DNA of 64,000 bases from Phyllobates terribilis (Eukaryota): contig NW_027362761.1 in assembly GCF_046119375.1 (NCBI RefSeq), forward strand, positions 986,234,001 to 986,298,000, given 5' to 3'. The notes under the pieces were generated by a model. It was not told where the DNA came from. It searched no databases and worked only from the letters and a program-made list of their open reading frames with translations. Numbering within the stretch: the first letter of the stretch is position 1; each line of letters starts with the position of its first letter. Position numbers and translations under genes: made by a program. Below, one piece after another: positions 1 through 64,000 of the stretch.

Positions 1-1232
1 GTAATATAAAGACAAACTATAACCCATTGGGTCCTTCCTTTTAAATTGCTATAATTGTATTTTTTGAAAAAATTGTAATATATAATGCTAAGTGATATAA
101 ATAAAGAGGATACTTTCATTATAGTAAACATATAATTAATTGAATTAACTACTGACAACTGATTTTTTTCTATGTTATTGTTGTTATTGATTATATTAAA
201 ATATCTAATTTGTCATAGGTTTTTCTTTATCTGAAGTAGTACTATATTATATTCCATGACAGCATTTAAGCTTAGTTTTCCTTACATTTATTACTATATG
301 TAATATTCATTGTAGAATTCATTATATGTTGGAAAACATTGTTGAAGATATGGGATTAGTTAATGAACATTTCTGTAAAGTAATTTGTATGTAATCAAAG
401 TGACTGTATCACAAGGACATTTCATGTTCTTTTTTCAGTTGTCTGTTTTTTATTACTTTCTAACAAAGAAACTTACAACAGAGTAGCCAATTACAAATGA
501 AAATAAAGACATGCATAACAATATCAGTTAACATAACTTAATTACTAACTTATAGTCTACACATTAGAATATACATAGGAGCATAAAAAAATAGTAACAA
601 CGCTACCTTACAATGATGAGAAGTGAAGGAACAGCTTCTGAAGACCATTATGGAAAGACCTTCAAAAACACAATGAAAAGGTTCTCATCATAATTGTGAC
701 AGTGAACTGTGTAGAAATCAGACCGTTTGAATATAATCATGCATAATACAAGTAGATTAAAAACCATATAGAAAGGAAAGTTAGTTTAGGTGAGAAGGAA
801 AATTCAACTTACTCGATACATCAATAATTCAGAAGACAATGTTAAGCCGCGTTTAGATGTTCAGTGTTTGGTCAGTATTTACATCAGACTTTGTAAGCTA
901 AAATCAGGAGTGGAACAATCAGAGGAAAAGTATAATAGAAGCATGAGGACAACTTCTGCATTTTTCACCCACTCCTGATTTTGGTTACAAATAATAATGT
1001 ACAATACTGCCAAAATACTGAACGTGTGAATGTAGCCTTAGACCCTTGGATCAAATCTATGGGACTCAGGAATTTCCCAAATAGCCCAATATGCAAATCA
1101 CCTCTTCAGAGAAAAAGAGAACTTGAACTCTACAGCTCCACCTATTGGAAGCAGCAATCCTACAAAGTCACAATCAACCCTTTAACAAGACGTGCAATAT
1201 GACTTAGGATGAAAGCCAAATCACAATGTCAA

Positions 1233-1277
1233 TTTGCTCGCACAGTGTTTCGAGCTGTTGGCTCTCATCAGCGGAAA
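1233..1277 (-). ncRNA. Type I hammerhead ribozyme, degenerate copy
   Basis: Minus strand reads TTTCCG-CTGATGA-GAGC-CAACA-GCTC-GAAA-CAC-T-GTG-CG-AGCAAA. Core and stem II are intact; the cleavage dinucleotide and stem I are mutated. Confidence 0.75.
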
Positions 1278-1506
1278 GTATGAGAATTGATTTGGTTAGG
1301 TGAGAGGCTCTGGACTGAGGTCTAAGGGGTAACGTTTCTCCTTATAGAGAGTGACACACTAGCCCTGGCATGTCAAGGTAAGGAGGCTTATTCACCGTGC
1401 AATGTGACTTCTAGGATTGCTGCTTTCAATAGGTGGAGCTGCAGAGTTCAAGTCTTCCAATAGGTGGCACTGTAGAGTTCAAGTCCTCTTTTTCTCTGAA
1501 GAGGTA

Positions 1507-1514
1507 ATTTGCAT
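1507..1514 (+). promoter_or_regulatory. Octamer motif ATTTGCAT in the retrozyme monomer (also 1839-1846 on + and 1091-1098 on -)
   Basis: Exact octamer at the same monomer position in all three partial copies. A regulatory role is inferred. Confidence 0.5.
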
Positions 1515-1660
1515 ATTAAATTTCCCAGAGGAGCATTGCATGGCGAATAAGTCTCCTTACCTTGACCTGCCAGAGCCAGTATGTCACTCTCCAGAAGGAG
1601 AAACGTTACCCCTTAGACCTCAGTCCAGAGCCTCTCACCTAGCCAAATTAATGCTCATAC

Positions 1661-1705
1661 TTTGCACTGATGAGGGCCAACAGCCCGAAGCACCGTGTCT
1701 GCAAA
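1661..1705 (+). ncRNA. Type I hammerhead ribozyme (GAAA changed to GAAG)
   Basis: TTTGCA-CTGATGA-GGGC-CAACA-GCCC-GAAG-CAC-C-GTG-TC-TGCAAA: perfect 6-bp stem I, 4-bp stem II, near-palindromic stem III and a GUC cleavage triplet ending at 1699. Confidence 0.85.
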
Positions 1706-2224
1706 TTGAGATTCTGATTTGGCATTTATCCTAAGTCATATTGTAAGACACGTTAAAGGGTCGATTATGATTTGTAGGATTGCTGCTTCCAATAGGTGGT
1801 GCTGAGGAGTTCAAGTCCTCTTTTTCTCTGAAGAGGCAATTTGCATATTACAGTTCCCGGAGGAGCATTGCACGGCGAATAAGCCTCCTTACCTTGACAT
1901 GCCAGAGCTAGTCACGTCACTCTCCACAAAGAGAAACGTGACCCAAATAGACCAAAAAATCAATTGTTGTATACAACTATCTACTGGTGATACCCCTTAT
2001 GTAAAATGAAATATAGCCCATATGGATATGTATGATAAAATTTATTAAAATAACACATTTCAATTAAGCCTTTATCTGATGATGTTTCCCCAGTGGATAG
2101 ATGTCTGTGGCAACTGATTGTTTTTTTCTTGAAATGATGACTTTGTTACATGATGTCACGGATAAGTGGATAACAGCTGCTTGAAGCTCCAGAAATATAT
2201 TCAACTCAATTATATACAAGGATT

Positions 2225-3050: not shown

Positions 3051-3965
3051 CACTCTATGTGGAAAGGTGTGGATTAGTGATGGCCGAGCACTAAAATGCT
3101 CGGGTACTCGTTACTCGGGTGAAGCAAATCGTAATGCTTGGGTGCTCGACCCAATAAAGAGTATAATGGAAGGTCTGGAGAGGGTCTAATCTAAAAATGG
3201 GTCAAATCAATGGAAACAGGCTGAAATAGCATGGAAACAGCATGGGGAAGTCCGCTGGAAGCATCTCTGAATCCTAGGTCGCTGCTGTTAGTTAGTTATT
3301 AGTGTTGAGCGAGCATGCTCGACACTGCTCGTTACTCGCCTGAGCATCACGCTACTCGGGATATTAGGCGAGCACCGAGCATTTCCGGGTTACTAGGGCG
3401 GGAGCTTGGGTCTCCGCCCTGCACGTTTGGAGCTCTTTACTGAGCCAATGAACATGCAGGGATTGCCAGCCAATCACTGTAATGGCACAGCCATGTTGTT
3501 TGTGGGCATTACAGTGAATGGCTGGCCGCACAGCGTCACCTCGAGTATTTAAAACCGGGCGCCGCCATCTTGGACACATTCACTCCGGATCAGATGGTGT
3601 AGGGAGAGTGCTGCTGAGTTAGGGAGAGATATATAGTGCGAAATAGGTAGTGTAGGGTCTCTAAAGCCTGCCAAATCAAACAAACAGTCCTTCTCAGGAC
3701 TAATATCCATCCCAGATATCAGTCAGGCAGGCAGGCGGGCTGTATAGGAGATGGAGTGGTTATACCAGCAAACGCTGCATTATAGTCCTGTGTGCTCCTG
3801 TTGTTCAAATTGCAAGACTTATCACCCCCGTCTCTGGGGCCAGGAAAAATTATTTTTTTTTCATCTAAATCCTGTATTTTTTTTTTCCTCAGTCAGACTG
3901 TCCAAATACGCGTCTTATTAACCTTTTGTTATTTCCCCCACCCCCCCCCCACAAAAAAAAAATTG

Positions 3966-6400
3966 AGTGTGTCTGTGACTGTTCAGACACCAATATATCT
4001 GTTTAAAAGAGTCTGGTGTAGGCCAGAAAAATAGAACTGTGGTTTTGCAGTTCCACGGGTCAAATCTCTGTATTATCCTGTTTTTGGCATTTTTTGCCAT
4101 AAAAGAAAAACTGTAATAGTGTCTGTCTGACTGGTCAGACACCAATATATCTACTTAAAAGAGTCTGGTGTATGCCACATAACTATAACTTTGGTTTTGC
4201 AGTTCCATGGGTCAAATCTCTGTATTATACTATTTTTGGCATTTTTTGTCATAAAAAAAACTGTAATAGTGTCTCCCTGACTGGTCAGACACCAATATAT
4301 CTGTTTAAAAGAGTCTGGTGTAGGCCAGAAAAATAGAGCTGTGGTTTTGCAGTTCCACGGGTCAAATCTCTGTATTATCCTGCTTTTGGCATTTTTTGCA
4401 ATAAAAAAAACTGTAATAGTGTCTCCCTGACTGGTCAGACACCAATATATCTGTTTAAAAAAGTCTGGTGTACGCCACATAACTATAACTGTGGTTTTGC
4501 AGTTCCACGGATCAAATCTCTGAATTATCCTGCTTTTTGTATTTTTGCCATAAAAAAAACAGTAATAGTGTCTTAGTGTCTCCCTGACTGTTCAGACACC
4601 AATATATCTGTTTAAAAGAGTCTGGTGTAGGCCAGAAAAATATAACTGTGGTTTTGCAGTTCCACTGGTCAAATCTCTGCATTATCCTGCTTTTGGCATT
4701 TTTTGCTGTAAAAAGAAACAGTAATAGTGTCTCCCTGACTGGTCAGACACCAATATATCTGTTTAAAAGATTCTGGTGTAGACCAGAAAAATATAACTGT
4801 GGTTTTGCACGGGTCAAATGTCTGTATTATCCTGTTTTTGGCATTGTTTGCCGTAAAAAAAAACTGTAATAGTGTCTCCCTGACTGGTCAGACACCAATA
4901 TATCTGTTTAAAAGAGTCTGGTGTACGCCACATAACTATAACTGTGGTTTTGCAGTTCCTTATGTAATTTATACATGTTATTTCATTGCTATTATGGGCT
5001 TACTTGTTGCCGGCATACTATGTCATTATTTGGTATGTAGATTCAATTCATTTGTTTTTGTATTGAACACTCTGGGGATTGCTCCCTATTTTTCTGAAGT
5101 TGGGTTTTTTATTTTGTTTTAATTTTATCTCAATAAAATTTAATATTTTAATATATCTCTAATACTCTTCAGTTTTGTGTGTTACACAAAATACAAATGT
5201 TGGATATATTGCACTCGAGTTGGATATGATACTTTATAAACCCATGGATACCATTGGGACTTTTTGTGGTTGTCACCAGTATATCTGTTTAAAAGAGTCT
5301 GGTATACGCCACATAACTATAACTGTGGTTTTGCAGTTCCACGGGTCAAACCTCTGTATTATCCTACTTTTGGCATTTTTTGCCGTAAAAAAACTGTAAT
5401 AGTGTCTCCCTGACTGGTCAGACACCAATATATCTGATTAAAAGAGTCTGGTGTATGCCACATAACTATAACTGTGGTTTTGCAGTTCCATGGGTCAAAT
5501 CTCTCTATTATCCTGCTTTTTGAGTTTTTTTGCCGCATAAAAAAACAGTAATAGTGTCTCCCTGACTGTTCAGACACCAATATATCTGTTTAAAAGAGTC
5601 TGGTGTAGGCCAGAAAAATAGAACTGTGGTTTTGCAGTTCCACGGGTCAAATCTCTGTATTATCCTTTTTTTCGCATGTTTTGCCGTAAAAAAAAACTGT
5701 AATAGTGTCTCCCTGACTGGTCAGACACCAATATATCTGTTTAAAAGAGTCTGGTGTGGCCAGAAAAATAGAACTGTGGTTTTGCAGTTCCACGGGTCAA
5801 ATCTCTGTATTATCCTGTTTTTGGCATTCTTTGCCGTAAAAAAGACAGATATAGTGTCTCCCTGACTCGTCAGACACCAATATATCTATTTAAAAGAGTC
5901 TGGTGTAGGCCAGCAAAAAAGAACTGTGGTTTTGCAGTTCCACGGTTCAAATCTCTGTATTATCCAGCTTTTGGTATTTTTTCCGTAAAGAAAAACAGTA
6001 ATAGTGTCTCACTGATTGTTCAGACACAAATATATCTGTTTGAAAGATTCTGGTGTAAGCCACATAACTATAACTGTGGTTTTGCAGTTGCACGGTTCAA
6101 ATCTCTGTATTATCCACTTTTGGGCCTTTTTTACATAAAAAAAAACAGTTTGAGTGTGTCGCTGACTGTTCAGCCCCAAATATATCTATTTAAAAAAGTC
6201 TGGTATACGCCAGTAAATTAGAACTGTGGTTTTGCAGTTCCACTGTTCACAACTCTGCATTATCCAGCTTTTGGCCTGTTTTACGTTAAAAAAAACAGTA
6301 ATAGTGTCTCCCTGTCTATTCAGTCACAAATATATCTGTTTAAAAGATTCTTGTATAGACCAGAGAAATAGAACTGTGGTTTTCCTCTTCCACGGTTCTA
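3966..6400. repeat. About 150-bp tandem array (about 15-16 units) upstream of the hAT transposase
   Basis: Unit TAGTGTCTCCCTGACTGGTCAGACACCAATATATCTGTTTAAAAGAGTCTGG... recurs at about 4116, 4265, 4416, 4724, 4869, 5399, 5549, 5701 and 5851; interrupted by unrelated DNA at about 4959-5272. Confidence 0.95.
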
Positions 6401-6467
6401 ATCTCATTTTAATTATTACCCTTTTTCCATTGATAGTGCGAGTGTAAGTTATTTTACATCATTTTCA

Positions 6468-9783: not shown

Positions 9784-10064
9784 AGACAAATCCACTGTAT
9801 TATATCGGGAGGTGTATTCCCATGCACCGCTTCACACCCACACATGTTTATACGCTATCTCAATTCAGCTTTTTTTTGCTCTTCTCCTTATCCTCAGCCT
9901 CCACCACTATACCACCAGGGTGACCATGGTCCGTGTTGCCAGTATTGCAAGTTCCTCCGTCCTAACTTTTGGAAGCTTTTGCTTGGAAGGCATAGGCAAA
10001 GACTATGGGAGACCCACTCCTCAATAACGGGAATAATGTTTTCAATATGCTGTACTGCATGGCT

Positions 10065-11995
10065 CTTGTAAGGGGCATTAAAACCGTCTTGTTAAACCAC
10101 TCTGACCTCCACGTCTCTTCCAAGGGGCATTTAAAGTATCTTGTTAAGCTTCTGCCACCTCCACGTCTCTTCCAAGGGGCATTAAAACTGTCTTATTAAG
10201 CTAATGCGACATCCACCACTTTTCCAAGGGGCATTAAAGCTGTCTTGTTAAGCTACTGCGACCTCCACCACTTTTCCAAGGGGCATTAAAGACATCTTGT
10301 TAAGCTACTGCGACCTCCACCGCTCTTCCAAGGGGCATTAAAACCATCTTATTAAACCACTCTGACCTCCACTTCTCTTCCAAGGGGCATTAAAACCGTC
10401 TTCTTAAGCTACTGTAACCTCCACAACTCTTCCAAGGGGCATTTTTACTGTCTTGTTAAGCTACTGCAACCTCCTCATCTCTTCCAAGGGGCATTAAAAC
10501 CATCTTGTTAAGCTAATGCGACCTCCACCACTTTTCCAAGGGGCATTAAAACTGTCTTGTTAAGCTACTGCGACCTCCACCACTTTTCCAAGGGGCATTA
10601 AAGCTGTCTTGTTAAGCTACGGTGACCTCCACGTCTCTTCCAAGGGGCAATAAAACCGTCTTGTTAAGCTACTGCGACCTCCACCGCTCTTCCAAGGGGC
10701 ATTAAAACCGTCTTGTTAAGCTACTGCGGCCTCCACCACTTTTCAAAGGGGCATTGATATTGTCTTTTTATTCCACTGCGACCTCCACGTCTCTTCCAAC
10801 GGGCATTAAAACCGTCTTGTTAAGCTACTGCGACCTCCACGTCTCTTACAATGGGCATTAAAACTGTCTTGTTAAGCTACTGTGACCTCCACCATTCTTC
10901 CAAGGGGCATTAAAACCGTCTTGTTAAGCTACTGCGACCTCCACCGCTCTTCCAAGGGGCATTAAAACCGTCTTGCTAAGCTACTGCGGCCTCCACCACT
11001 TTTCAAAGGTGCATTGATATTGTCTTTTTATTCCACTGCGATCTCCACGTCTCTTCCAAGGGGCATTAAAACCGTCTTGTTAAGCTAATGCGACCTCCAC
11101 CACTTTTCCCAGGGGCATTGATATTGTCTTTTTCTTCCACTGCGTCCTCCATGTCTCTTCCATGGGGCATTAAAACCATCTTGTTAAGCTACTGTGACCT
11201 CCACCACTCTTCCAAGGGGCATTTAAACCGTCTTGTTAAGCTACTGTGACCTCCACCACTTTTCCCAGGGGCATTGATATTGCCTTTATATTCCACTGCG
11301 ACCTCCACGTCTCTTCCAAGGGGCATTAAATCCATCTTGTTAAGCTACTATGACCTCCACCAATTTTCCAAGGGGCGTTAAAGCTGTCTTGTTAAGCTAC
11401 GGTGACCTCCACCACTCTTCCAAGGGGCATTAAAACCGTCTTATTAAGCTACAGCGACCTCCACGTCTCTTACAAGGGGCATTAAAGCTGTCTTGTTAAG
11501 CTACTGTGACCTCCACCACTCTTCCAAGGGGCATTAAAACCATCTTGTTAAGCTACTTCGACCTCCACCGCTCTTCCAGGGGGCATTAAAACCGTCTTGT
11601 TAAGCTACTGCGACCTCCACCACTTTTCCAAGGGGCATTGATATTGTCTTTTTATTCCACTGCGACCTCCACGTCTCTTCCAAGGGGCATTAAAACCATC
11701 TTGTTAAGCTAATGCGACCTCCACCACTTTTCCCAGTGGCATTATTATTGCCTTTTTGTTCCACTGCGACCTCCACGTCTCTTCCAAGGGGCATTAAAAC
11801 CGTCTTGTTAAGCTACTGCGACCTCCATCACTTTTCCCAGGGGCATTGATATTGTGTTTTTATTCCACTGCTACCTCCACCACTTTTCCAAGGGGCATTA
11901 AAACCATCTTGTTAAGCTACTGCGACCTCCACCACTTTTTCAAGGGACATTGATATTGTCTTTTTATTCCACTGCGAACTCCACCATTCTTCCAA
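10065..11995. repeat. 52-bp minisatellite (about 37 units, two variant subunits) inside the hAT 3' region
   Basis: Unit AAGCTACTGCGACCTCCACCGCTCTTCCAAGGGGCATTAAAACCGTCTTGTT (AAGCT at 10666 and 10718). A variant carries GATATTGTCTTTTTATTCCA. Confidence 0.95.
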
Positions 11996-47655: not shown

Positions 47656-50481
47656 AGGGGTATTCCCATCACCAAGGTCCTATCCCAATATGTACTAGGT
47701 GTAACAATAAAAATATTAGCAAATACCTCCAATTAGAAATGTAGTATAGTTTTTCTGATTTGCCTCTTTCCTCATGTGCAGGCATTGCAGGACCTTAGGA
47801 ATCCATGGGTACGACCACTGATATAGTGATATTTAGCTAGTTGCTAGTGGTCGTATCCATGGATACCTTAGATCCTGAAATGCCTGCACATGAGGAAAGA
47901 GACATATCGAATCAGAATAAACTATACTACATTTATAACTGGAGATATTTGATAATATTATTAATACATCTATATTATAACCGGGGATGCATGTCTCTGT
48001 CTGAAGCCTTTATAGACTGCGCATGCGCGACGCGCAGTCTGGCTCCAGACAGAAGCACGCATCCAGCCATTACAGGAAAGAGGAGTGTATGGTGCCGGAG
48101 ATTGCGGTATGCGTAGACACTGATCACATACCGCGATCTCTGGCGCCATACTTAGATACTTACCTGACTGGGAGGAGCGTTGCTGCGGTGCCTCTCTTCG
48201 CCAGAGACCGGGGCAGGAGAGAGTCATTGGATCGGTGCATGCGCATAATGTGCATTGTGTCCTCAGCAAAATGGCGCCAGACAGCGCGGTGCTCCAGTGC
48301 TGCACTCCTCCCCCGGCAGAACAGGACACCGCAGCGCTGGAGCACAGGGAAGAAAGGTGAGTATAAGTGTTTATTTTTTGTATGTGTGTACAGCATGAAA
48401 GGGATGAGGGGGCCACACATACCAGGATTGTGGGCTGAGGGGTGCCACACATACCAGGATTGGAGGTGAGGGGTACCATGCATACCAGGATTGGGGGGTG
48501 AGGGACCATGCATACCAGGATTGGGCGGTGAGAGGACCATGCATACCAGGATTGAGGGGTGAGGGGTACAACACACACCAGGATTGGGGGGTAAGGGGAC
48601 CATGCATACCAGGATGAGGGGTACCATTCATACCAGGATTGGGGGGTGAGGGGACCGTGCATACCAGGATTGGGGGGTGAGGGGACCATGCACACCAGGA
48701 TTGGGGGATGAGGGGACCATGCACACCAGGATTGGGCGGTGAGGGGACCATGCACACCAGGATTGGGGGTGAGGGGTACCATGCATACCAGAATAGGGAT
48801 GAGGCGAACCATACATACCAGAATAGGAATGCGGGGCACCATGCATACCATGTTGAGGGATGGGGTGCCATGCATACCTGGATGAGGGGTACCATGCATA
48901 GCAGGATAAGGATGAGGGGTGTCATGCATACTAGGATGAGGGATGGGGTGCCATGCATACCAGGTTTCTGGGATGAGGAGGTCATACATACCAGAATTGG
49001 GATGAGGGGTGCCATGCATACTAGGATGAGGGGTACCATACATACCAGGATAGGGATGAGGGGTACCATGTATACCAGGATTGGGGATGAGGTGCCCATG
49101 CATACGAGGATAGGGATGAGGAGTGCCATGCATACCAGGATGAGGGTGAGGGAGCCATACATACCAGGATTGGGGATGACGGAGCAATGCATACCAGGAT
49201 TGGGGATGAGGGGTGCCATGCATACCAGGATTGAGGATGAAGGGTGCCATGCATACCAGAATAGGGATGAGGCGAACCATACATACCAGAATAGGAATGC
49301 GGGGCACCATGCATACCATGTTGAGGGATGGGGTGCCATGCATACCTGGATGAGGGGTACCATGCATAGCAGGATAAGGATGAGGGGTGTCATGCATACT
49401 AGGATGAGGGATGGGGTGCCATGCATACCAGGTTTCTGGGATGAGGAGGTCATACATACCAGAATTGGGATGAGGGGTGCCATGCATACTAGGATGAGGG
49501 GTACCATACATACCAGGATAGGGATGAGGGGTACCATGTATACCAGGATTGGGGATGAGGTGCCCATGCATACGAGGATAGGGATGAGGAGTGCCATGCA
49601 TGCCAGGATGAGGGTGAGGGAGCCATACATACCAGGATTGGGGATGACGGAGCAATGCATACCAGGATTGGGGATGAGGGGTGCCATGCATACCAGGATT
49701 GAGGATGAAGGGTGCCATGCATACCATGATTGGGGATGAAGGATGCCATACATACAAGGATTGGGAATGAGGGAGCCATGCATACCAGGATTGGGGATGA
49801 GGGGTGCCATGCATACCAGGATTGGGGGTGAGGGGTGCCATGCATACCAGGATTGGGGATGAAGGGTGCCTTGCATACCAGGATTGTGGGTGAGGGAGCC
49901 ATGCATACCAGGATTGGGGATGAGGGAGCTATGCATACCAGGATTCGGGATGAGGGAGCCATGCAGACCGGGATTGGGGATGAGGGGTACCATGCATACC
50001 GGGATTGGGGATGAGGGGTGCCATGCATACCGGGGTTGGGGATGAGGGGTGCCATACATACCAGGATTGGGGATGAGGGGTGCCATGCATACCAGGATTG
50101 GGGATGAGGGGTGCCATGCATACTGGTATTGGGAATGAGGGGAGCCATGCTTAGTGGGATTGGGGATGAGGGGTGCCATGCCTTCCGGGATTGGGGTTGA
50201 GGGGTGCCATGCATACCAGGATTGGGGTTGAGGGGTGCCATACATACCAGGATTGGGGGTGAGGAGTGCCATGCATACCAGGATAGGGATGAGGGGTGCC
50301 ATGCATACCAAGATAGGATGGTGGGGACAGGATGGGGGCTGCACAAATACCAGGAGGGGGCAGCACATACCAGCATGGGAGACCATATACCAATAAAAAT
50401 GCTCGCCACCCGGGCGTAGAACGAGTTCAATAGCTAGTCTACTACATATTGGAATAGGATATTGGAGATGGGAATACCCCT
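47656..50481. mobile_element. T2/Kolobok-type MITE (2.8 kb)
   Basis: TTAA TSD at 47652-47655 and 50482-50485; TIR AGGGGTATTCCCATC extending imperfectly to about 40 bp; AGGRR terminus; internal hairpin at about 47745-47925. Confidence 0.92.
48400..50320. repeat. About 31-bp G-rich minisatellite with a 468-bp higher-order duplication
   Basis: Unit ATGCATACCAGGATTGGGGATGAGGGGTGCC; 48781-49248 is repeated almost exactly at 49249-49716. Confidence 0.95.
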
Positions 50482-50838
50482 TTAAGTCTGGTATGACTAG
50501 TGAAAGTGAAAATTTTCTGCAAACGTTAAAGCTTTCTAAACACCCTAATAAAAAAAGACATTTCAAAAGTGACGCTGACAAAAAGTAGACATATATAAAC
50601 TGTTATATATTAACTATTTTGTGTTTTATGAATATCTGTTTTAAGTGTATAAAAATTCATTTGATATTGTCATAAGTAAACACAAATTTTATTTCCAGAA
50701 ATATACTACTAATATAATGTACAATATGTCATAATAAAATAATTTTCACTGGGATATGTAGAAGCATTGCAAATTTATCACCACGTATAAGTGACATGTC
50801 TGTTTTTAAAAATTTGGCCTTGCCAGGGAGGTAAAAAC

Positions 50839-57352: not shown

Positions 57353-57902
57353 TTCAAAAACCACAGAGAACATAGTATACACCTTAAGATATAACTTTTA
57401 ATAGATATTTTAAAAGATAATAGCAATATTTCAGGACAAAAATTCAGATAAAAGTATGGGGAAGGAAAGGCAATGGGGCAGCACAAAATGCTATGCAGAC
57501 TTACCCTATAGGCCCTAAGGGAGGAATGCCCTACTTAACAGCGGAGTAATCACCCTAATGTGTCGGCGTGGGGTCCCCGCTCCACGGAGGCTGTCCCTTG
57601 CCTGTCCCTAGCACATCGCTATACAGACATACAAACATAAAAACAAAAAACAGGAACAAAAAATAAACCGGTGTCCCAAAATTGGGGGACTTGACAGTCA
57701 TATCAAAAGTTGATATGCTGTAAGAGTAAAGAACCATGCATCAGTTATGATAAGATGTGTAAGAAGTGTCAACAAGATAACTTATTCTATTGAAATGACC
57801 ACAAACAATCAATGTCAATGCCCCAAAAACATTAGGGTTATAGTTGTAAAAAATTGAAGAGACCATGTGTCCCTATCAATAAATATAGAATTAGAATAGC
57901 TA

Positions 57903-58425
57903 TTTGCGTCTCAGTTAACCCACAAAATGGCCGAAAAAAAGGTATCTGCAGACCACTTTAGTAATCATATAATAACAACAGTGTTACTCAAATATTCTCA
58001 TTGAGGTAATATAACAGTAGTCAAAAATAGAAAAGAAAAAGACTGCTAGATAACAGAGACATCTGATGTTCAAAAATTCATGGTAATGATGTACACTACA
58101 CTCCCAATACTTAGAGCAATGTGCTAAATAAATTTACATCACAACCGTTATAATAAGATGGGTAAGGAGTGTCAATAAGATAACTTATTTTTTGTGTCTC
58201 AGTTAACCCACATAATGGCCAAAAAAGGTATCTGCAGACCACTTTAATAATTATATAATAACAACAGTGTTAGTCAAATGTTCTCATTGAGGTAATGTTA
58301 CAGCAGTCAAAAAAAAAAGAGACTGATGGATAACAGACATGTGATGCTCAATAATTCATGGTAATGATGTGTGCTATACTCCCAGTAGTTAGTGCAATGT
58401 GCTAAATAAATTCACATCACAGCAA
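57903..58425. repeat. About 288-bp tandem duplication in the PLE 3' region
   Basis: TTTG(C/T)GTCTCAGTTAACCCACA at 57903 and 58191 with collinear continuation. Confidence 0.85.
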
Positions 58426-58505
58426 TCACGTAATAACAAACTGTTAGATTGCAGACTTATCTGATGCTGATTGCTTCATTATCACTATATAAAGATGAGG
58501 TCCCA

Positions 58506-58552
58506 GTCCCAACGCATTTCGCCCCCTCCTAGGTCAGGGCTCATCAGGGGAC
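58506..58552 (-). ncRNA. Minimal type I hammerhead ribozyme of the PLE
   Basis: Minus strand reads GTCCC-CTGATGA-GCCC-TGACCTAGGAGG-GGGC-GAAA-TGCG-TT-GGGAC: perfect stem I, stem II and intact core. Confidence 0.88.
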
Positions 58553-59342
58553 AATCACAGAAGTACACCATAATAGGTAGGGCTGGATGGAGAAGTAAAT
58601 ATATCCCATCAATTGAATCACCAAGCCAAAAGAGTCAGTGACCCATCAGGCTTAAATACACCCCCTGCAGTACTTGTACAGGAAACACCTGTCAGCCGTA
58701 TCTAGCGCGGTAGAGCAATCACCACCATGAGGCACTGCTGGAACGCTGAGTGCGTGCCAACGGCGATTTGTTTCTTCCGCCTGTGGCAATGTAAGTCACA
58801 TCCACCACGCGAGCTCAATGGAACGCATATGCGTGTCACCAGTACTTCCACCCGCGACAGACACATGACGCCACTTCGGCCGCACGATCATGGTGGAACG
58901 CAGATGCATCTCACCAGCGCTTAGAAAAAGCAGAAAACATCAATTCTATAAGTTATAACAAGCGCAAGATCAGGAAGTTATAGACATCAAATAAGACACA
59001 AATAAGATCCTAACACTAGGCATAGAGGATTTGTTGATGAAAAAAAAACGGTATAATAATGTACAAATCAGTACCGGTCATTAGAAGAGGGGGAAATATA
59101 GAGGTGTAATAATAAAGAGTTATAAGCCCACTAAACTGTATGTCCTAAGGGTCTAAATACAGAGACTAGCAGGAAATACCAGTAGTCTGATTGTCCAAAC
59201 TTTCATGGACCAGGATACCGACCATGAGACAGTAAATGTATATATAAGTCCAAATGACATAATGCCAGTATTGATTCTTATGAGTGGGTATGCTAATAAA
59301 ACGAGTAGACTTAGACAAAGCTAGAGAAGTTTAGTTGTTCAT

Positions 59343-62300
59343 TTATACCTCCTGGGTTTTGGGATTCCAGCCAGAAAATCCATCTACATTCCCTCGCAGT
59401 TTCACTTTATCCCAATCGCCCTGGCGGGCTCGAGGGCTAATCACTTCAACAGAGCGAAACGAAATAGAGTCTAGATTACCACCATGATAAGTGTTTACAT
59501 GTTTCGCTAGGGGTGTCTCCCTTTTGTGTCTGATGTCACCTAAATGTTCCCCAATACGGATTTTGAACTGCCTTTTAGTTTTTCCGACATAATCTTTTGG
59601 GCATCTGCAAGTACAGAGATATATTACACCTGTAATTGTACAATTGGCGAAGTGTCTGTTCTTATAAATACGCTTAGTTACTGCATTAGAGAAGGTTGTA
59701 GATGGTGAAACAAACTTACAGAAGCTGCAATGGCCACATCTAAAGGTGCCAACTGATCTTCTATCCAACCAGGTACCCTCCTTCCTAGGAGGGGTATGTA
59801 CTAGGTGATCCCTGATCGATTTACCCCTCCTAAAAGTGACTGAGGGTGAATGTGAAATCCACTTCTTAATGTCGGGGTCAGTTTGCCATATATGTTGGTC
59901 GTCAAAAGTACCAATCAGTCTTGTCATGGATTCAGGTTCTGGTCTGGTATGAGGTAACAATAGTTTGGACCTATCTTGTCCAAGCGCATTCTTATATGCC
60001 GCCTTGACTATGTTGGCTGGGTAGTCCCAGCATAAAAACCTTTCTTTGAGATCTACAGCCTTCTTACAGAAGTCAGAGGTTGAGGAACAGTTCCTTCTTA
60101 ATCTTAAAAACTGACCCTTCGGGATCCCTCATTTTTGTGGGGTTGGATGATAACTCCCCCATTTAAGTAGACTGTTAGCTGCCGTAGGTTTACGATAATT
60201 TGAGGATCTCAAAAGGCCCAACTCATCAATTGAAATCATCACATCAAGGAAAGCAATCTTCTTATCACTTATTTCATAGGTCAATTTTAAACCTAGGTTA
60301 TTAGCATTCAAGTATTGCATGAGATCAATGAAAGATGACTTATCACCAGTCCAAAGGATGAGGATGTCATCTATATAACGGCCCCAAATTTGAATAAAGG
60401 GGCCCCAGATGATATCCCCATCCTGAAAAAGAACCGTGTCCTCCCACCAGCCCAGGAGCAAGTTAGCATACGTGGGAGCACAAGGGCTCCCCATTGCTGT
60501 GCCCCTGAGCTGGTGGTAAAACCTGCCATGAAAAAGAAAATAATTGTGTCTCAACACATGGTCAAGAAGTTGAATAACAAATCTGTTATGCGAGATAAAA
60601 TGATTGCCTCTCGTACTTAAAAATGACTCCACTGCCTGCAGGCCTGCTGTATGATGGATACTAGAATATAATGCATCCACATCAATAGATATTAGCATGG
60701 TGCCTGGATCAACAGTGATACCATCTAATTTAGTTAGAAGATCGGTTGTGTCCCTAAGATAGGAGGTCTAAGAATCTGGTCCAGGTAGATGCTACAGTTT
60801 TGACTTAAGGCATCAATACCCGACACAATCTGTCTCCCTTTCAAAGGTGGATAACCCTTATGAATCTTTGGGAGCGCATAGAACGTTGCAATCATTGGAT
60901 ATTTTTGGAGCAGAAATAAAAATTCAGTTTTGGAGATCAGCCCATCAGTTTTGGCTTGTTGAAGTATTTTCGACAGAGTCCTAATAAAGTCCATCGTTAC
61001 ATAATGTTTGGTAAGTTGTGGCATCTGCTAGAATGTCCATACACATTGTCACATAACTATCACAGTCAAGGATAACTACATTATCCCCCTCGTCGGAGGG
61101 TTTGATCAACAGAGAGGTATCCTTATTCAGATCTTGTAAGGCTCTACGTTCTTCAAAAGTAAGATTAGAATTGATTTTATGTAATCTAGGGTTGATCTTT
61201 TCAATCTCCTCAGTGACTAATGTTGAAAAAATATATCAATACTACTGACTTCACCCAGGGGTGGCAATTTAGAGCTTTTTAGCTTCAAATCTGAGAAGGG
61301 GCCTTGTCCTACATCATGGGCACTTTCATCTGCCAGATGTGTTAATAAATAGACATCAGAGTGCTCATCCATCCCAATCCCCAATTGTTGACATTTGGCT
61401 TTGTCATTCAGAGTAAAGAATTTTTTCCATCTGAGGTTCCTCAAAAAAAGATTTTAGTCTTTTACCCAGGTAAAGGGATCAAACCGAGTAGTCGGTACAA
61501 AGGACAGGCCTGCCTTTAATACTTTCCTTTCAGTGTCAGTAAGGACATGTGATGATAAATTAATAATAGTACTATCGGAGTTATCCACCTTTTGGTTAAG
61601 TCTCCATTGACCCTTGGTTGCTGATGATCTCCCAGAGTGCCCTATCTGTTTTAGGCTGCAGTCCAATCTCGTAAAAAATATCTAAAAAAGAAGTCGTACC
61701 TGAGGTAGATGCTAATGAGGAAGAGGAGGAATACGAGGGTACCTGACCCAAACGCTCTCGACTTAGCCATCTCCTATTCTGGCCTCTTCTCCCATGACCT
61801 CTAGATCTAGCTACAGACCTGAACACTTCCCTCCTTGAATGTTAAGTGTCAGAAGATTCTAGATCCAAGGATGAAATATCAGTTGGGCCACCCGGTTTAT
61901 TGGAGAGAGCAGGATAAGCTTGTTTATCCTTAAAGTGGGCAAGATCTCTTAAACATCGTTTGTGCTTACGATCTTTCAAAGTAAGCTGATATTTTTCAAC
62001 TGATACCTTTGGGTTCTCTTCTCTAGTGCAGAATTCCGAGGAAGTTTTAAACTTCAGAGCACGCTCAATATGCTCTTTAAGGTTAGTTGAGGAGTTATCA
62101 AAGGTTACTTTTTCCTCCTCAAGGAGAATCTGCATAAATCATAATGAGGAGGCTGCTGATTCTTTCTCCCACCTTAAGAGAAGATTATCATATCTACTCC
62201 TGGGTGCAGGTACTAAATTAATCCTGAGTCCCTGTGGTACTATTCCTTGTTTGATATACTTTTCTAAAGATTGGATTTCCCACCACGACTTAATGTTATT

Positions 62301-62408
62301 CCTATATGCCTCCAAAAGATCCACAAAAATATTCTTCAAATTTGGTTCAACTGAAGTGGTGCTATCGTGTTCATTACCAGAAAAACCTCTCTAGCCTCAT
62401 CTAGCCAT
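59343..62408 (-). pseudogene. PLE reverse transcriptase / GIY-YIG endonuclease pseudogene
   Basis: N-terminal YIKQGIVPQGLRI; FYALPKIHK; IDVDALYSSI; QLRGTAMGSPCAPTYANL; RYIDDILILW; RCGHCSFC; GVIYLCTCRCPKDYVGKTKR...RIGEH. Multiple stops and frameshifts. Confidence 0.93.
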
Positions 62409-62432
62409 TTACTCGTATAAATAAGTCCCGAT

Positions 62433-62755
62433 TAGTGTTGAGCCACCCCCGTAGTATTCGAGTTCGGTTCGGTTCGTCGAACATCCGTGTGTTCGCCGAA
62501 CTGTTCGTCGAACTGTTCGTCGAACACCTTCGAACACCGTTAAAACCAATGGCAGGCAAACAAAAACACATAGAAACACATAGAAAACACCTTCAAAGGT
62601 GTCCAAAAGCTGACAAACTGCTCAGAAGACACAACTAACACATGGAAAAGTGACAAGTACATATAGTCATGCGAAAAGAAAAGAGGTGGAGGAGTAAAAG
62701 GAGGGGGAGACACAGATATAGGCATGTCATGCCCTTCTAAAATCCAAAAAGTGAG
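62433..62755. mobile_element. Orphan hAT terminus (related subfamily)
   Basis: TAGTGTTGAGCCACCCCCGTAGT...GTTCGG array as at 21203 and 50839; diverges after ...CAGAAGACAC; no partner end in the window. Confidence 0.8.
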
Positions 62756-62937
62756 AAGCCGACACGTTCAGTCCGCTCCTGCCCGTGCCACCTCCGCGTC
62801 GCCGGGTTTGTGCCAGAGCCGCGGTGAACCCTGACGGCCAGCCCCCCTCTCCCAATACTGGTGCCTGTCCGCTGGTGGGTCGAGCGAGCCCCCCTGTGGT
62901 GGAGGCAGCTCTAAGCTTTTTAATTTAAATTGTCTCT

Positions 62938-63240
62938 CTAATTTGAATGAATACACTTTAAATCCATTTACAAGGATCTATTGGAGGGCAAGTCTCATGC
63001 CAGCAGCCGCGTAATTCCAGCTCCAGTAGCGTCCACTAAAGCTGCTGCAGTTAAAAAGCTTTTATAAGGATCGAGCTCGGCTGTCCACCACATGGCATCC
63101 TACTGCCAGTCCCAGCCCCTATGCCTTGGGGTGCCTCCTGATGCTCTTCACTGAGTATCCCGTGGTCCCGAAGCATTTCCTTTGAAAAAATTAAGTGTCC
63201 AAACTACAGGTGGTGTAGCTTGCTTAACAGCCGGGATAAT
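62938..63240 (+). pseudogene. 18S rRNA: Decayed 18S rRNA fragment (about 300 bp, V3-V4 region)
   Basis: TTGGAGGGCAAGTCT.ATGCCAGCAGCCGCG.TAATTCCAGCTCCA, GCTGCAGTTAAAAAGCT, GATGCTCTT..CTGAGT.TCCCG and CTTTGAAAAAATTA.GTGT are collinear with vertebrate 18S but carry many substitutions and small deletions. Confidence 0.9.
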
Positions 63241-63474
63241 CCGCTGACTAGCAGACACTGCTACTAGGCACAAAGTATTTCCTGGGCTAGATGCAGTTAA
63301 AAATTTGTAATTAGATACTCTCGTTGGATGCTGAGAAAGCATTCCATAGAGTCTCCTGGCACGCCATATATGATTCTCTTAAAAAGCTTGGGGTAGGGGT
63401 CTAGGGGACCCTTTTATAGCCAAAATCACGGCCCTGTATCGCAATACGTCACCTAGGCTGAAGATAAATGGAAC

Positions 63475-64000
63475 TGTAGCACCCTGAGGGCTCGGTTGCT
63501 ACAGAGGTATTGCACCTCACCCAGAGGTGTGATATCTCACTCTCAGGTAAGGATGTAGTGTGGATCAGGACCCGACACCTGCATGCATTACACCACATTG
63601 CCGTGGGGCAGGGCGACCAATATGCCCCTGAGATGGGCACGACAGTCCCTGTCCCTGGCTGGAGTGGGGGGAGGGAACACTGAGGAAGGGGAACCCTGTA
63701 GTGCAGGAGCAGGGAGGAAGCAGTTCCTGGGTGCATTGAGAAGGGAGTATAAAAGGTGGGCACCATCTTAGTTCAGTGCAGAGAAGTCTGAGCAGAAGTG
63801 GCAGGGTGCAGGGGCTCTGCATGAGCTCTGCTCCGGAGGCGGGCCTAGTAACAGAGGCCCAGGCCTGGAAGAGGGAGAAGGAAGGAAGAGGAGCGGAGAA
63901 GGCTCCAGGAACGAGGAACGAAGGGATCCCAGGGGTGCGGACGAGCGAGTCGCCACCGCACGCCCGAATCCACCTGCGTGGAGGGGTCAGGCCAAAGGGG
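63475..64000 (+). mobile_element. Probable LTR (5' end), running off the window
   Basis: Abrupt TG start (TGTAGCACCC), GC-richer non-coding sequence, TATAAAAG at about 63748 followed by CCATCTT. No internal genes visible. Confidence 0.45.

Follow-up and report, generated by a model that had tools for sequence, protein, structure and literature searches.

A conserved minimal hammerhead in the pseudo-LTR of a Neptune-like Penelope-like element and insertion junctions at its predicted cut site

Penelope-like elements (PLEs) are known to harbor minimal hammerheads in their pseudo-LTRs (pLTRs), and dimers of these PLE hammerheads are reportedly the subject of a study by Lunse et al. The minimal hammerhead itself is ordinary, with thousands of copies per amphibian genome, and about 9,000 have been reported for Xenopus tropicalis (PMC4209133); the question is whether such weak motifs cut in vivo. 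Their activity in vitro was found to be low even as dimers, and the same report states that it has no in vivo evidence (PMC4209133; Cervera and de la Pena, 2014). The function of PLE hammerheads has been called unclear (PMC8557442; Craig et al., 2021). In the case of the anole element PAc, a member of Poseidon, the cut coincided with neither the start nor the end of any RNA-seq read, and cleavage was unnecessary for insertion in vitro (PMC11167929; Frangieh et al., 2024).

The window treated here (the whole stretch of DNA that was analysed, 64 kb in length) contains a new example of these already published PLE pseudo-LTR hammerheads (Table 1). On the minus strand, read from 58552 to 58506, the motif combines a 5-bp stem I (GUCCC/GGGAC), the core segments CUGAUGA and GAAA, a 5-bp stem II that includes a U-G pair (GCCCU/GGGGC) with a loop II of 10 nt, a stem III of two pairs (A-U and U-G, in the sequence AUGCGU), and the triplet GUU; the cut is predicted at 58511/58510. 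A sequence-only reading of the window had described a minimal type I PLE hammerhead in the pseudo-LTR, about 800 nt downstream of the ORF, and this description stands: stem I, core, the GCCC/GGGC pairs of stem II, GAAA, the two-pair stem III, and GUU are all present, and the last ORF stop (59345-59343) is located ~790 nt upstream of the motif. Only the length of stem II had to be corrected, its fifth pair (U-G) having been missed. The assignment to the hammerheads is based on a core of the form CUGANGA...GAAA...UH, on helices I and II, and on a very short palindromic helix III, and the location in the pseudo-LTR and the conservation with the element mark it as a PLE motif. It is the sole descriptor match on both strands of the 64 kb, and 40 Markov shuffles yielded 0.175 matches per shuffle with the loose and 0 with the strict descriptor. 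None of the 32 matches of the Rfam scan at E<=1 was to a hammerhead model, and the fold stability is not unusual (z -1.11; the minimum-energy fold has stems I and II), as would be the case for any motif this small. Neither the window nor the 18 kb beyond it contains another hammerhead in cis. Loop II contains a 6-nt palindrome (window 58526-58535, minus strand) that could pair between molecules at -10.2 kcal/mol; as an intermolecular pairing element it was set aside, being missing from several sister families.

Table 1. Coordinates and strands of the features described for the window
Feature	Position	Strand	Remarks
Decayed Penelope-like element, Neptune-like	57355..62432	-	just under one unit long
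Broken ORF	59343..62432	-	RT, CxxCxxC linker, GIY-YIG-type endonuclease remnant
3' non-coding region (pseudo-LTR)	57355..59342	-	internal ~280-nt duplication, 58421-58189 and 58143-57903
Conserved block	57496..57625	-	acceptor-like (T-rich, TAG) and donor-like (GT/GC variants, 57504) flanks
Minimal type I hammerhead	58506..58552	-	complete core; descriptor scan and family alignment
5'-junction pile-up at predicted cut	58507..58512	-	L106, L108, L109, L110
Second 5'-junction pile-up	58615..58631	-	~30 nt after TATA box
TATA-like box	58652..58658	-	148 nt upstream of cut; two sister families have comparable boxes
Non-LTR retrozyme copy, 332-nt unit	1088..1944	.	inverted piece 1088-1404, forward piece 1454-1944
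Retrozyme hammerhead	1661-1705	+	A15.1 changed
Retrozyme hammerhead	1277-1233	-	U16.1 changed

The host genome comprises 10.6 Gb, and the closest named proteins come from poison frogs and tree frogs. Within the ORF of the element, an RT domain was recognised by Pfam (PF00078, 60132-60767, E 6e-7), and the CxxCxxC linker was located in the frame 59343-60128. The endonuclease frame of the window gave no Pfam match; it can be aligned (46%) to P0007, for which a weak GIY-YIG match was obtained, and a GIY-YIG-type motif is visible in the translation of the ORF C-terminus. A single ORF with RT and, at the C-terminus, GIY-YIG, together with partial tandems, a pLTR, inverted 5' pieces, and a tail (L093, L096, L097, and others), gives the family the make-up of an EN+ Penelope-like element, the partial tandems and inverted 5' pieces being present in copies other than that of the window. 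A CX2-5CxxC linker between RT and EN is described as defining Neptune and as absent in Penelope and Poseidon (PMC8557442), and a 2026 preprint found only Neptune and Poseidon among the PLEs of vertebrates (10.64898/2026.07.22.740005); judged by the linker and by this distribution, the element is probably Neptune-like. The 3' ends of the family cluster at 57355 and at a second site some 60 nt beyond, i.e. ~68 and ~8 nt before the ATG of the next unit. Young sister families form head-to-tail arrays with a spacing of ~5.0 kb, so that several hammerheads would sit on one transcript.

The copy in the window is a fossil, with a broken ORF, a single hammerhead, and a weakened stem III. Its ORF is damaged by several in-frame stops, frameshifts, a mutated start codon, and a deletion at 59892 that is private to this copy. 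The first ~55 nt of the element are found outside the window (L092:3560-3617), beyond a ~13-kb insertion that is flanked by an 8-bp duplication. Since this detached 5' end begins just 35 nt before the ATG, the copy never had an upstream pLTR and holds one hammerhead. The element had previously been termed autonomous, a designation that must be withdrawn for the copy in the window, as it shows neither an intact ORF nor an upstream pLTR promoter and carries only one hammerhead. The insertion itself (window 62433-64000, L091, and L092:1-3559) splits off the PLE 5' end, has short terminal inverted repeats besides the 8-bp duplication, and contains hAT-like ORF remnants. It also includes a degraded 18S rRNA fragment (window 62880-63243, plus strand; RF01960, E 1.7e-16); near-identical 18S stretches in L059 and L082 indicate that this fragment travels in a mobile element. 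The PLE, in turn, sits inside an older hAT-like ORF, the halves of which flank it (window 57354 downward and L092:3614-4513). Tandem arrays with units of 52, 150, and 31 nt are present elsewhere in the window (9967-11800, 3953-6437, and 48000-50600, respectively), as are many large MITE-like inverted repeats. One further copy of the family (L130:1854-3001) has a 75-nt pLTR segment (window 58917-58843) amplified to a tandem array of ~15 units.

Stem III of the window copy had been noted to be one transition away from the palindrome ACGCGU, and the consensus base agrees with this. Of 25 exact 33-nt genomic matches (G000), 24 carry a C at position 58516, with the window providing the sole T, and among 32 aligned rows C occurs 29 times, T twice, and a gap once. 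The family majority of stem III is thus the palindrome ACGCGU, and the motif belongs to the family consensus instead of being absent from it. The U at 58516 in the window would be copy-specific decay, most simply CpG decay. In a dimer, AUGCGU would still form six pairs, at a predicted -3.9 kcal/mol versus -7.5 kcal/mol for ACGCGU. When the ~2 kb pLTR is compared with those of three sister families fetched via ORF homology, alignment is confined almost entirely to the hammerhead and the block 57625-57496. Across 13 sequences from several families, both sides have changed at 3 of the 5 pairs of stem I, and the covariation score was reached by none of 500 shuffles, in a set with some circularity, since a pairing descriptor had served to find part of its members. 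One copy (L029:1601-1726) has a 5-nt deletion whose end coincides with the exact predicted cut. The conserved block, ~130 nt in length (57496..57625, minus strand), matches the hammerhead in its degree of conservation across 10 sister-family pLTRs. Searches of this block (57625-57496) gave no Rfam match, and neither a consistent fold nor covariation was seen; a small exon of the 5' UTR, a part of the promoter, or an RT-binding RNA element are possible identities.

The predicted cut is independently marked by genomic 5' junctions. A family anchor just 3' of the cut was found at 41 places, and the start of each piece was mapped. Ten of the 41 pieces are censored, namely nine that end at 59892, where the window copy has its private deletion, and the window itself. 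Five of the 31 uncensored pieces start at 58507-58512, at four loci on four chromosomes. With 0.39-0.50 starts expected per 10 nt, the excess at the cut site has a Poisson p of 0.0007-0.002. This pile-up was first noticed after the fact, though the site had been predicted beforehand, and two sister families, S and T, then served as tests. Five further pieces start at 58615-58629, and additional copies at 58626-58631; this second pile-up likely represents the transcript start of a pLTR promoter. The junctions at the cut read TT and then GGGAC, and as TT is also native, their position is ambiguous by 2 nt. On the 3' side, 3 of 54 contexts end at the cut or at most 4 nt from it (L112, L118, and L004), and the L112 piece (58624-58512) spans the stretch from start to cut. 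The L108 junction is also contained in contigs of the public runs X1 and X4 and is, therefore, not solely a feature of the assembly; the search for RNA listed no RNA holder, and its four weak holders, all contigs of a single study, cannot show RNA ends, strand, or expression.

In the sister families, an A occupies the cleavage position, which removes the 2-nt ambiguity of the junctions. Family S (L105), with the native triplet GUA, has 139 anchor matches, 100 of which were listed, and at least seven loci among these ~139 matches start 0-2 nt from the cut. On the basis of 47 sampled pieces, 0.49-0.86 starts are expected (p 8e-7 to 3e-5). An identically designed control, which covered 14 nt downstream and was thus twice as wide, gave two independent events as compared with six in 7 nt at the cut (binomial p 0.02). 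In these counts, L168 and L169 were dropped as a local duplication devoid of a junction and L171/L172 were counted once; in the control, L174 was dropped as a point variant and L176-L179, which share the same flank, were counted once. Family T (L162) has 191 anchor matches, again with 100 listed, and at least three loci start at the cut, a count that comes with no formal control. No sampled piece of family T starts 3-42 nt upstream of the cut, and ~20 pieces start 43-55 nt upstream, around TATA+31 at -53; ends near -105 and -430 were excluded, as the alignment stops there in poly-T. Family S has two ends at -115 and -120, with its TATA at -145. Pile-ups at TATA+30 were thereby recovered in all three families, providing an internal check on the junction method. 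The counts are small throughout: background rates derive from the first ~47-50 pieces listed, on chromosomes C1-C3, pieces of the same locus cannot count as independent, and a filter that misses some junctions provided the only coverage for 39 of the 139 S matches and 91 of the 191 T matches. Among nine non-palindromic cut junctions of S and T, seven lack the native A at -1, which places the break at the cut itself, and five carry a T at this position. The T would fit either T-rich targets or a run-off with an A added to the cDNA. [quoted passage not shown]

It is supposed that these junctions record cleavage. The conserved, Neptune-like pLTR hammerhead likely cuts a minority of the transcripts of active members, and the cut RNA is then likely copied into insertions that begin at the cut. 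On the sequence evidence available, self-cleaved RNA would likely be a minor template of reverse transcription in vivo. Transcription would start near 58628, from the pLTR promoter, and the hammerhead 118 nt downstream of this start would cleave as a dimer through pairing of ACGCGU, the partner being either a tandem unit or a second molecule in trans, possibly with the help of proteins. By analogy, dimer action of the window-family motif would fit what has been described for PLE hammerheads in general (PMC4209133). Reverse transcription would begin near the 3' end of the element and run off at whichever RNA 5' end is met, which would yield the two pile-ups. Often, the RT would extend the cDNA by one or two A, and the cDNA would then be joined to the target or fold back. 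The majority of the templates would stay uncut, and cleavage is probably not needed for transposition. A more far-reaching version, which we hold to be somewhat better than an even bet, regards the junctions as a fossil record of germ-line cleavage in which the RT makes use of both products: the 3' product would serve as a template that is shortened and lacks the promoter, and the ~118-nt piece from start to cut as an acceptor for template switching.

The main rival predicts a similar position. It accepts the conserved fold as real and ascribes the pile-up to stalling or template switching of the RT at the folded or dimerised core, with the backbone remaining uncut, an explanation we consider unlikely. 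From the structure, an RT that has passed the 3' strand of stem I would meet the core and stem III exactly here, hairpin-type and inverted junctions do occur at the cut (L106, L109, L110, and L171/L172), and the substrate used in vitro was predominantly uncut RNA (PMC11167929). A stall should, however, show up at the 3' foot of stem I before any other place, and just one of the 41 window-family pieces, the fold-back of L106, starts in the 3' strand of stem I. The S and T junctions are base-precise and have an added T of the kind that run-off would leave, on the 3' side, too, some pieces stop at the cut, and the stem III duplex amounts to only about -7.5 kcal/mol, all of which speaks against stalling. 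Less probable again is that the pile-up is an artefact at the DNA level or of sampling, produced by microhomology (TT or G-runs), by rearrangement of the palindrome, or by small numbers, with the hammerhead as an ordinary, known passenger for which in vivo activity could not be demonstrated. The low counts and a family S control that reaches only p 0.02 agree with this explanation, as does the retrozyme of the window, which has a stronger hammerhead and for which none of 40 5' ends lies 5 nt or less from the cut; the possibility that PLEs are merely parasitised by hammerheads has been raised before (PMC8557442). Such an artefact would, on the other hand, have to arise in three families with differing downstream sequence and cleavage triplet, on different chromosomes and with different flanks, while the same analysis yields the ends at TATA+30 and one junction recurs in public run contigs.

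A further proposal concerns the retrozyme and treats the PLE family of the window as its specific mobiliser or parent, which is very unlikely. The retrozyme had been placed at 1090-1941, and a real copy does exist at about 1088-1944, though both of its hammerheads carry changes in the core. Its family provided 5065 first-look candidates and occurs as tandem copies; a non-coding unit within 170-400 nt and a type I hammerhead assign it to the retrozymes. This hammerhead is of canonical size, with a 6-bp stem I, a 4-bp stem II, and a stem III region of 9 nt. In favor of the proposal, the insertions look PLE-like: their 3' ends fall into two fixed clusters (unit positions 179-188 and 274-291), the 5' ends are scattered, and 5' inversions occur. 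In addition, frog retrozymes are stated to be related to pLTRs in general (10.64898/2026.07.22.740005). Yet a comparison of the retrozyme with the window PLE detected no sequence similarity (best blastn E 1.9), so that a derivation from this pLTR is not indicated, the hammerhead differs, and the 3' ends are spaced by ~100 nt in the retrozyme versus ~60 nt in the window PLE. The link between the two elements suggested by the sequence-only reading is, hence, not borne out by similarity, architecture, or 3'-end spacing. At one locus (L126), the ORF of another, distantly related PLE is followed after ~90 nt by a retrozyme copy; none of 29 relatives of the L126 ORF has a retrozyme beside it, so that this search yielded no parent. 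Near a PLE start (L055/L127), a retrozyme-like piece (71%) is also found, in opposite orientation. The general link between retrozymes and PLEs has already been published (PMC7229834; 10.64898/2026.07.22.740005), and at such copy numbers the presence of both elements in one 64-kb window would be unremarkable.

If cleavage is indeed recorded in new insertions, the mapping of junctions would constitute a genome-wide assay of in vivo ribozyme activity that requires sequence only and is applicable to any PLE family. Cleavage could then also act as a brake on the element by stripping the transcript start from new copies. The base-precise junctions at the predicted bond, seen in three families, amount to an inexpensive readout for which any assembled genome would be suitable, and the young families S and T, with the exact bond, represent targets for bench tests. 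Within the literature covered, to which most subscription papers do not belong, no report of PLE 5' junctions at a hammerhead cut was found, and the junctions are regarded as new evidence.

With the minimal hammerheads of metazoan PLEs, the window family has in common the type I topology, a 5-bp helix I, a complete core, a palindrome at 15.2-16.2, and the site in the pLTR (PMC4209133). It differs in helix II, which has 5 bp and no unpaired base before it as compared with 7-8 bp in Schistosoma, in the majority triplet GUU, and in the genomic ends at the cut (PMC4209133). The tail measures about 60 nt as opposed to 30-40 in the Neptune clade (PMC8557442), in which the family is tentatively placed. 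The 332-nt retrozyme fits the amphibian non-LTR retrozymes, with a tandem unit and a type I hammerhead of canonical size (PMC7229834; 10.64898/2026.07.22.740005). PAc resembles the window family in having a pLTR hammerhead, two 3' ends that match two RT starts, and mostly uncut templates (PMC11167929). In PAc, however, the hammerhead overlaps the start codon and the RT starts inside the ORF, whereas in the window family a distance of ~1.2 kb separates the hammerhead from the next ATG downstream, and the 3' ends lie just before this ATG; genomic 5' junctions are seen at the cut in the window family, whereas no reads ending there were seen for PAc (PMC11167929). A parallel for the junctions is the HDV-like ribozyme of R2, whose cut sets the template's 5' end and is recorded in 5' junctions with non-templated additions, as would likewise be the case here (PMC3774820; Eickbush et al., 2013). 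Ribozyme class and element are different, and the R2 cut defines the full-length 5' end (PMC3774820), whereas the cut of the window type marks just ~2-10% of the pieces, a share that is in line with uncut RNA as the main template.
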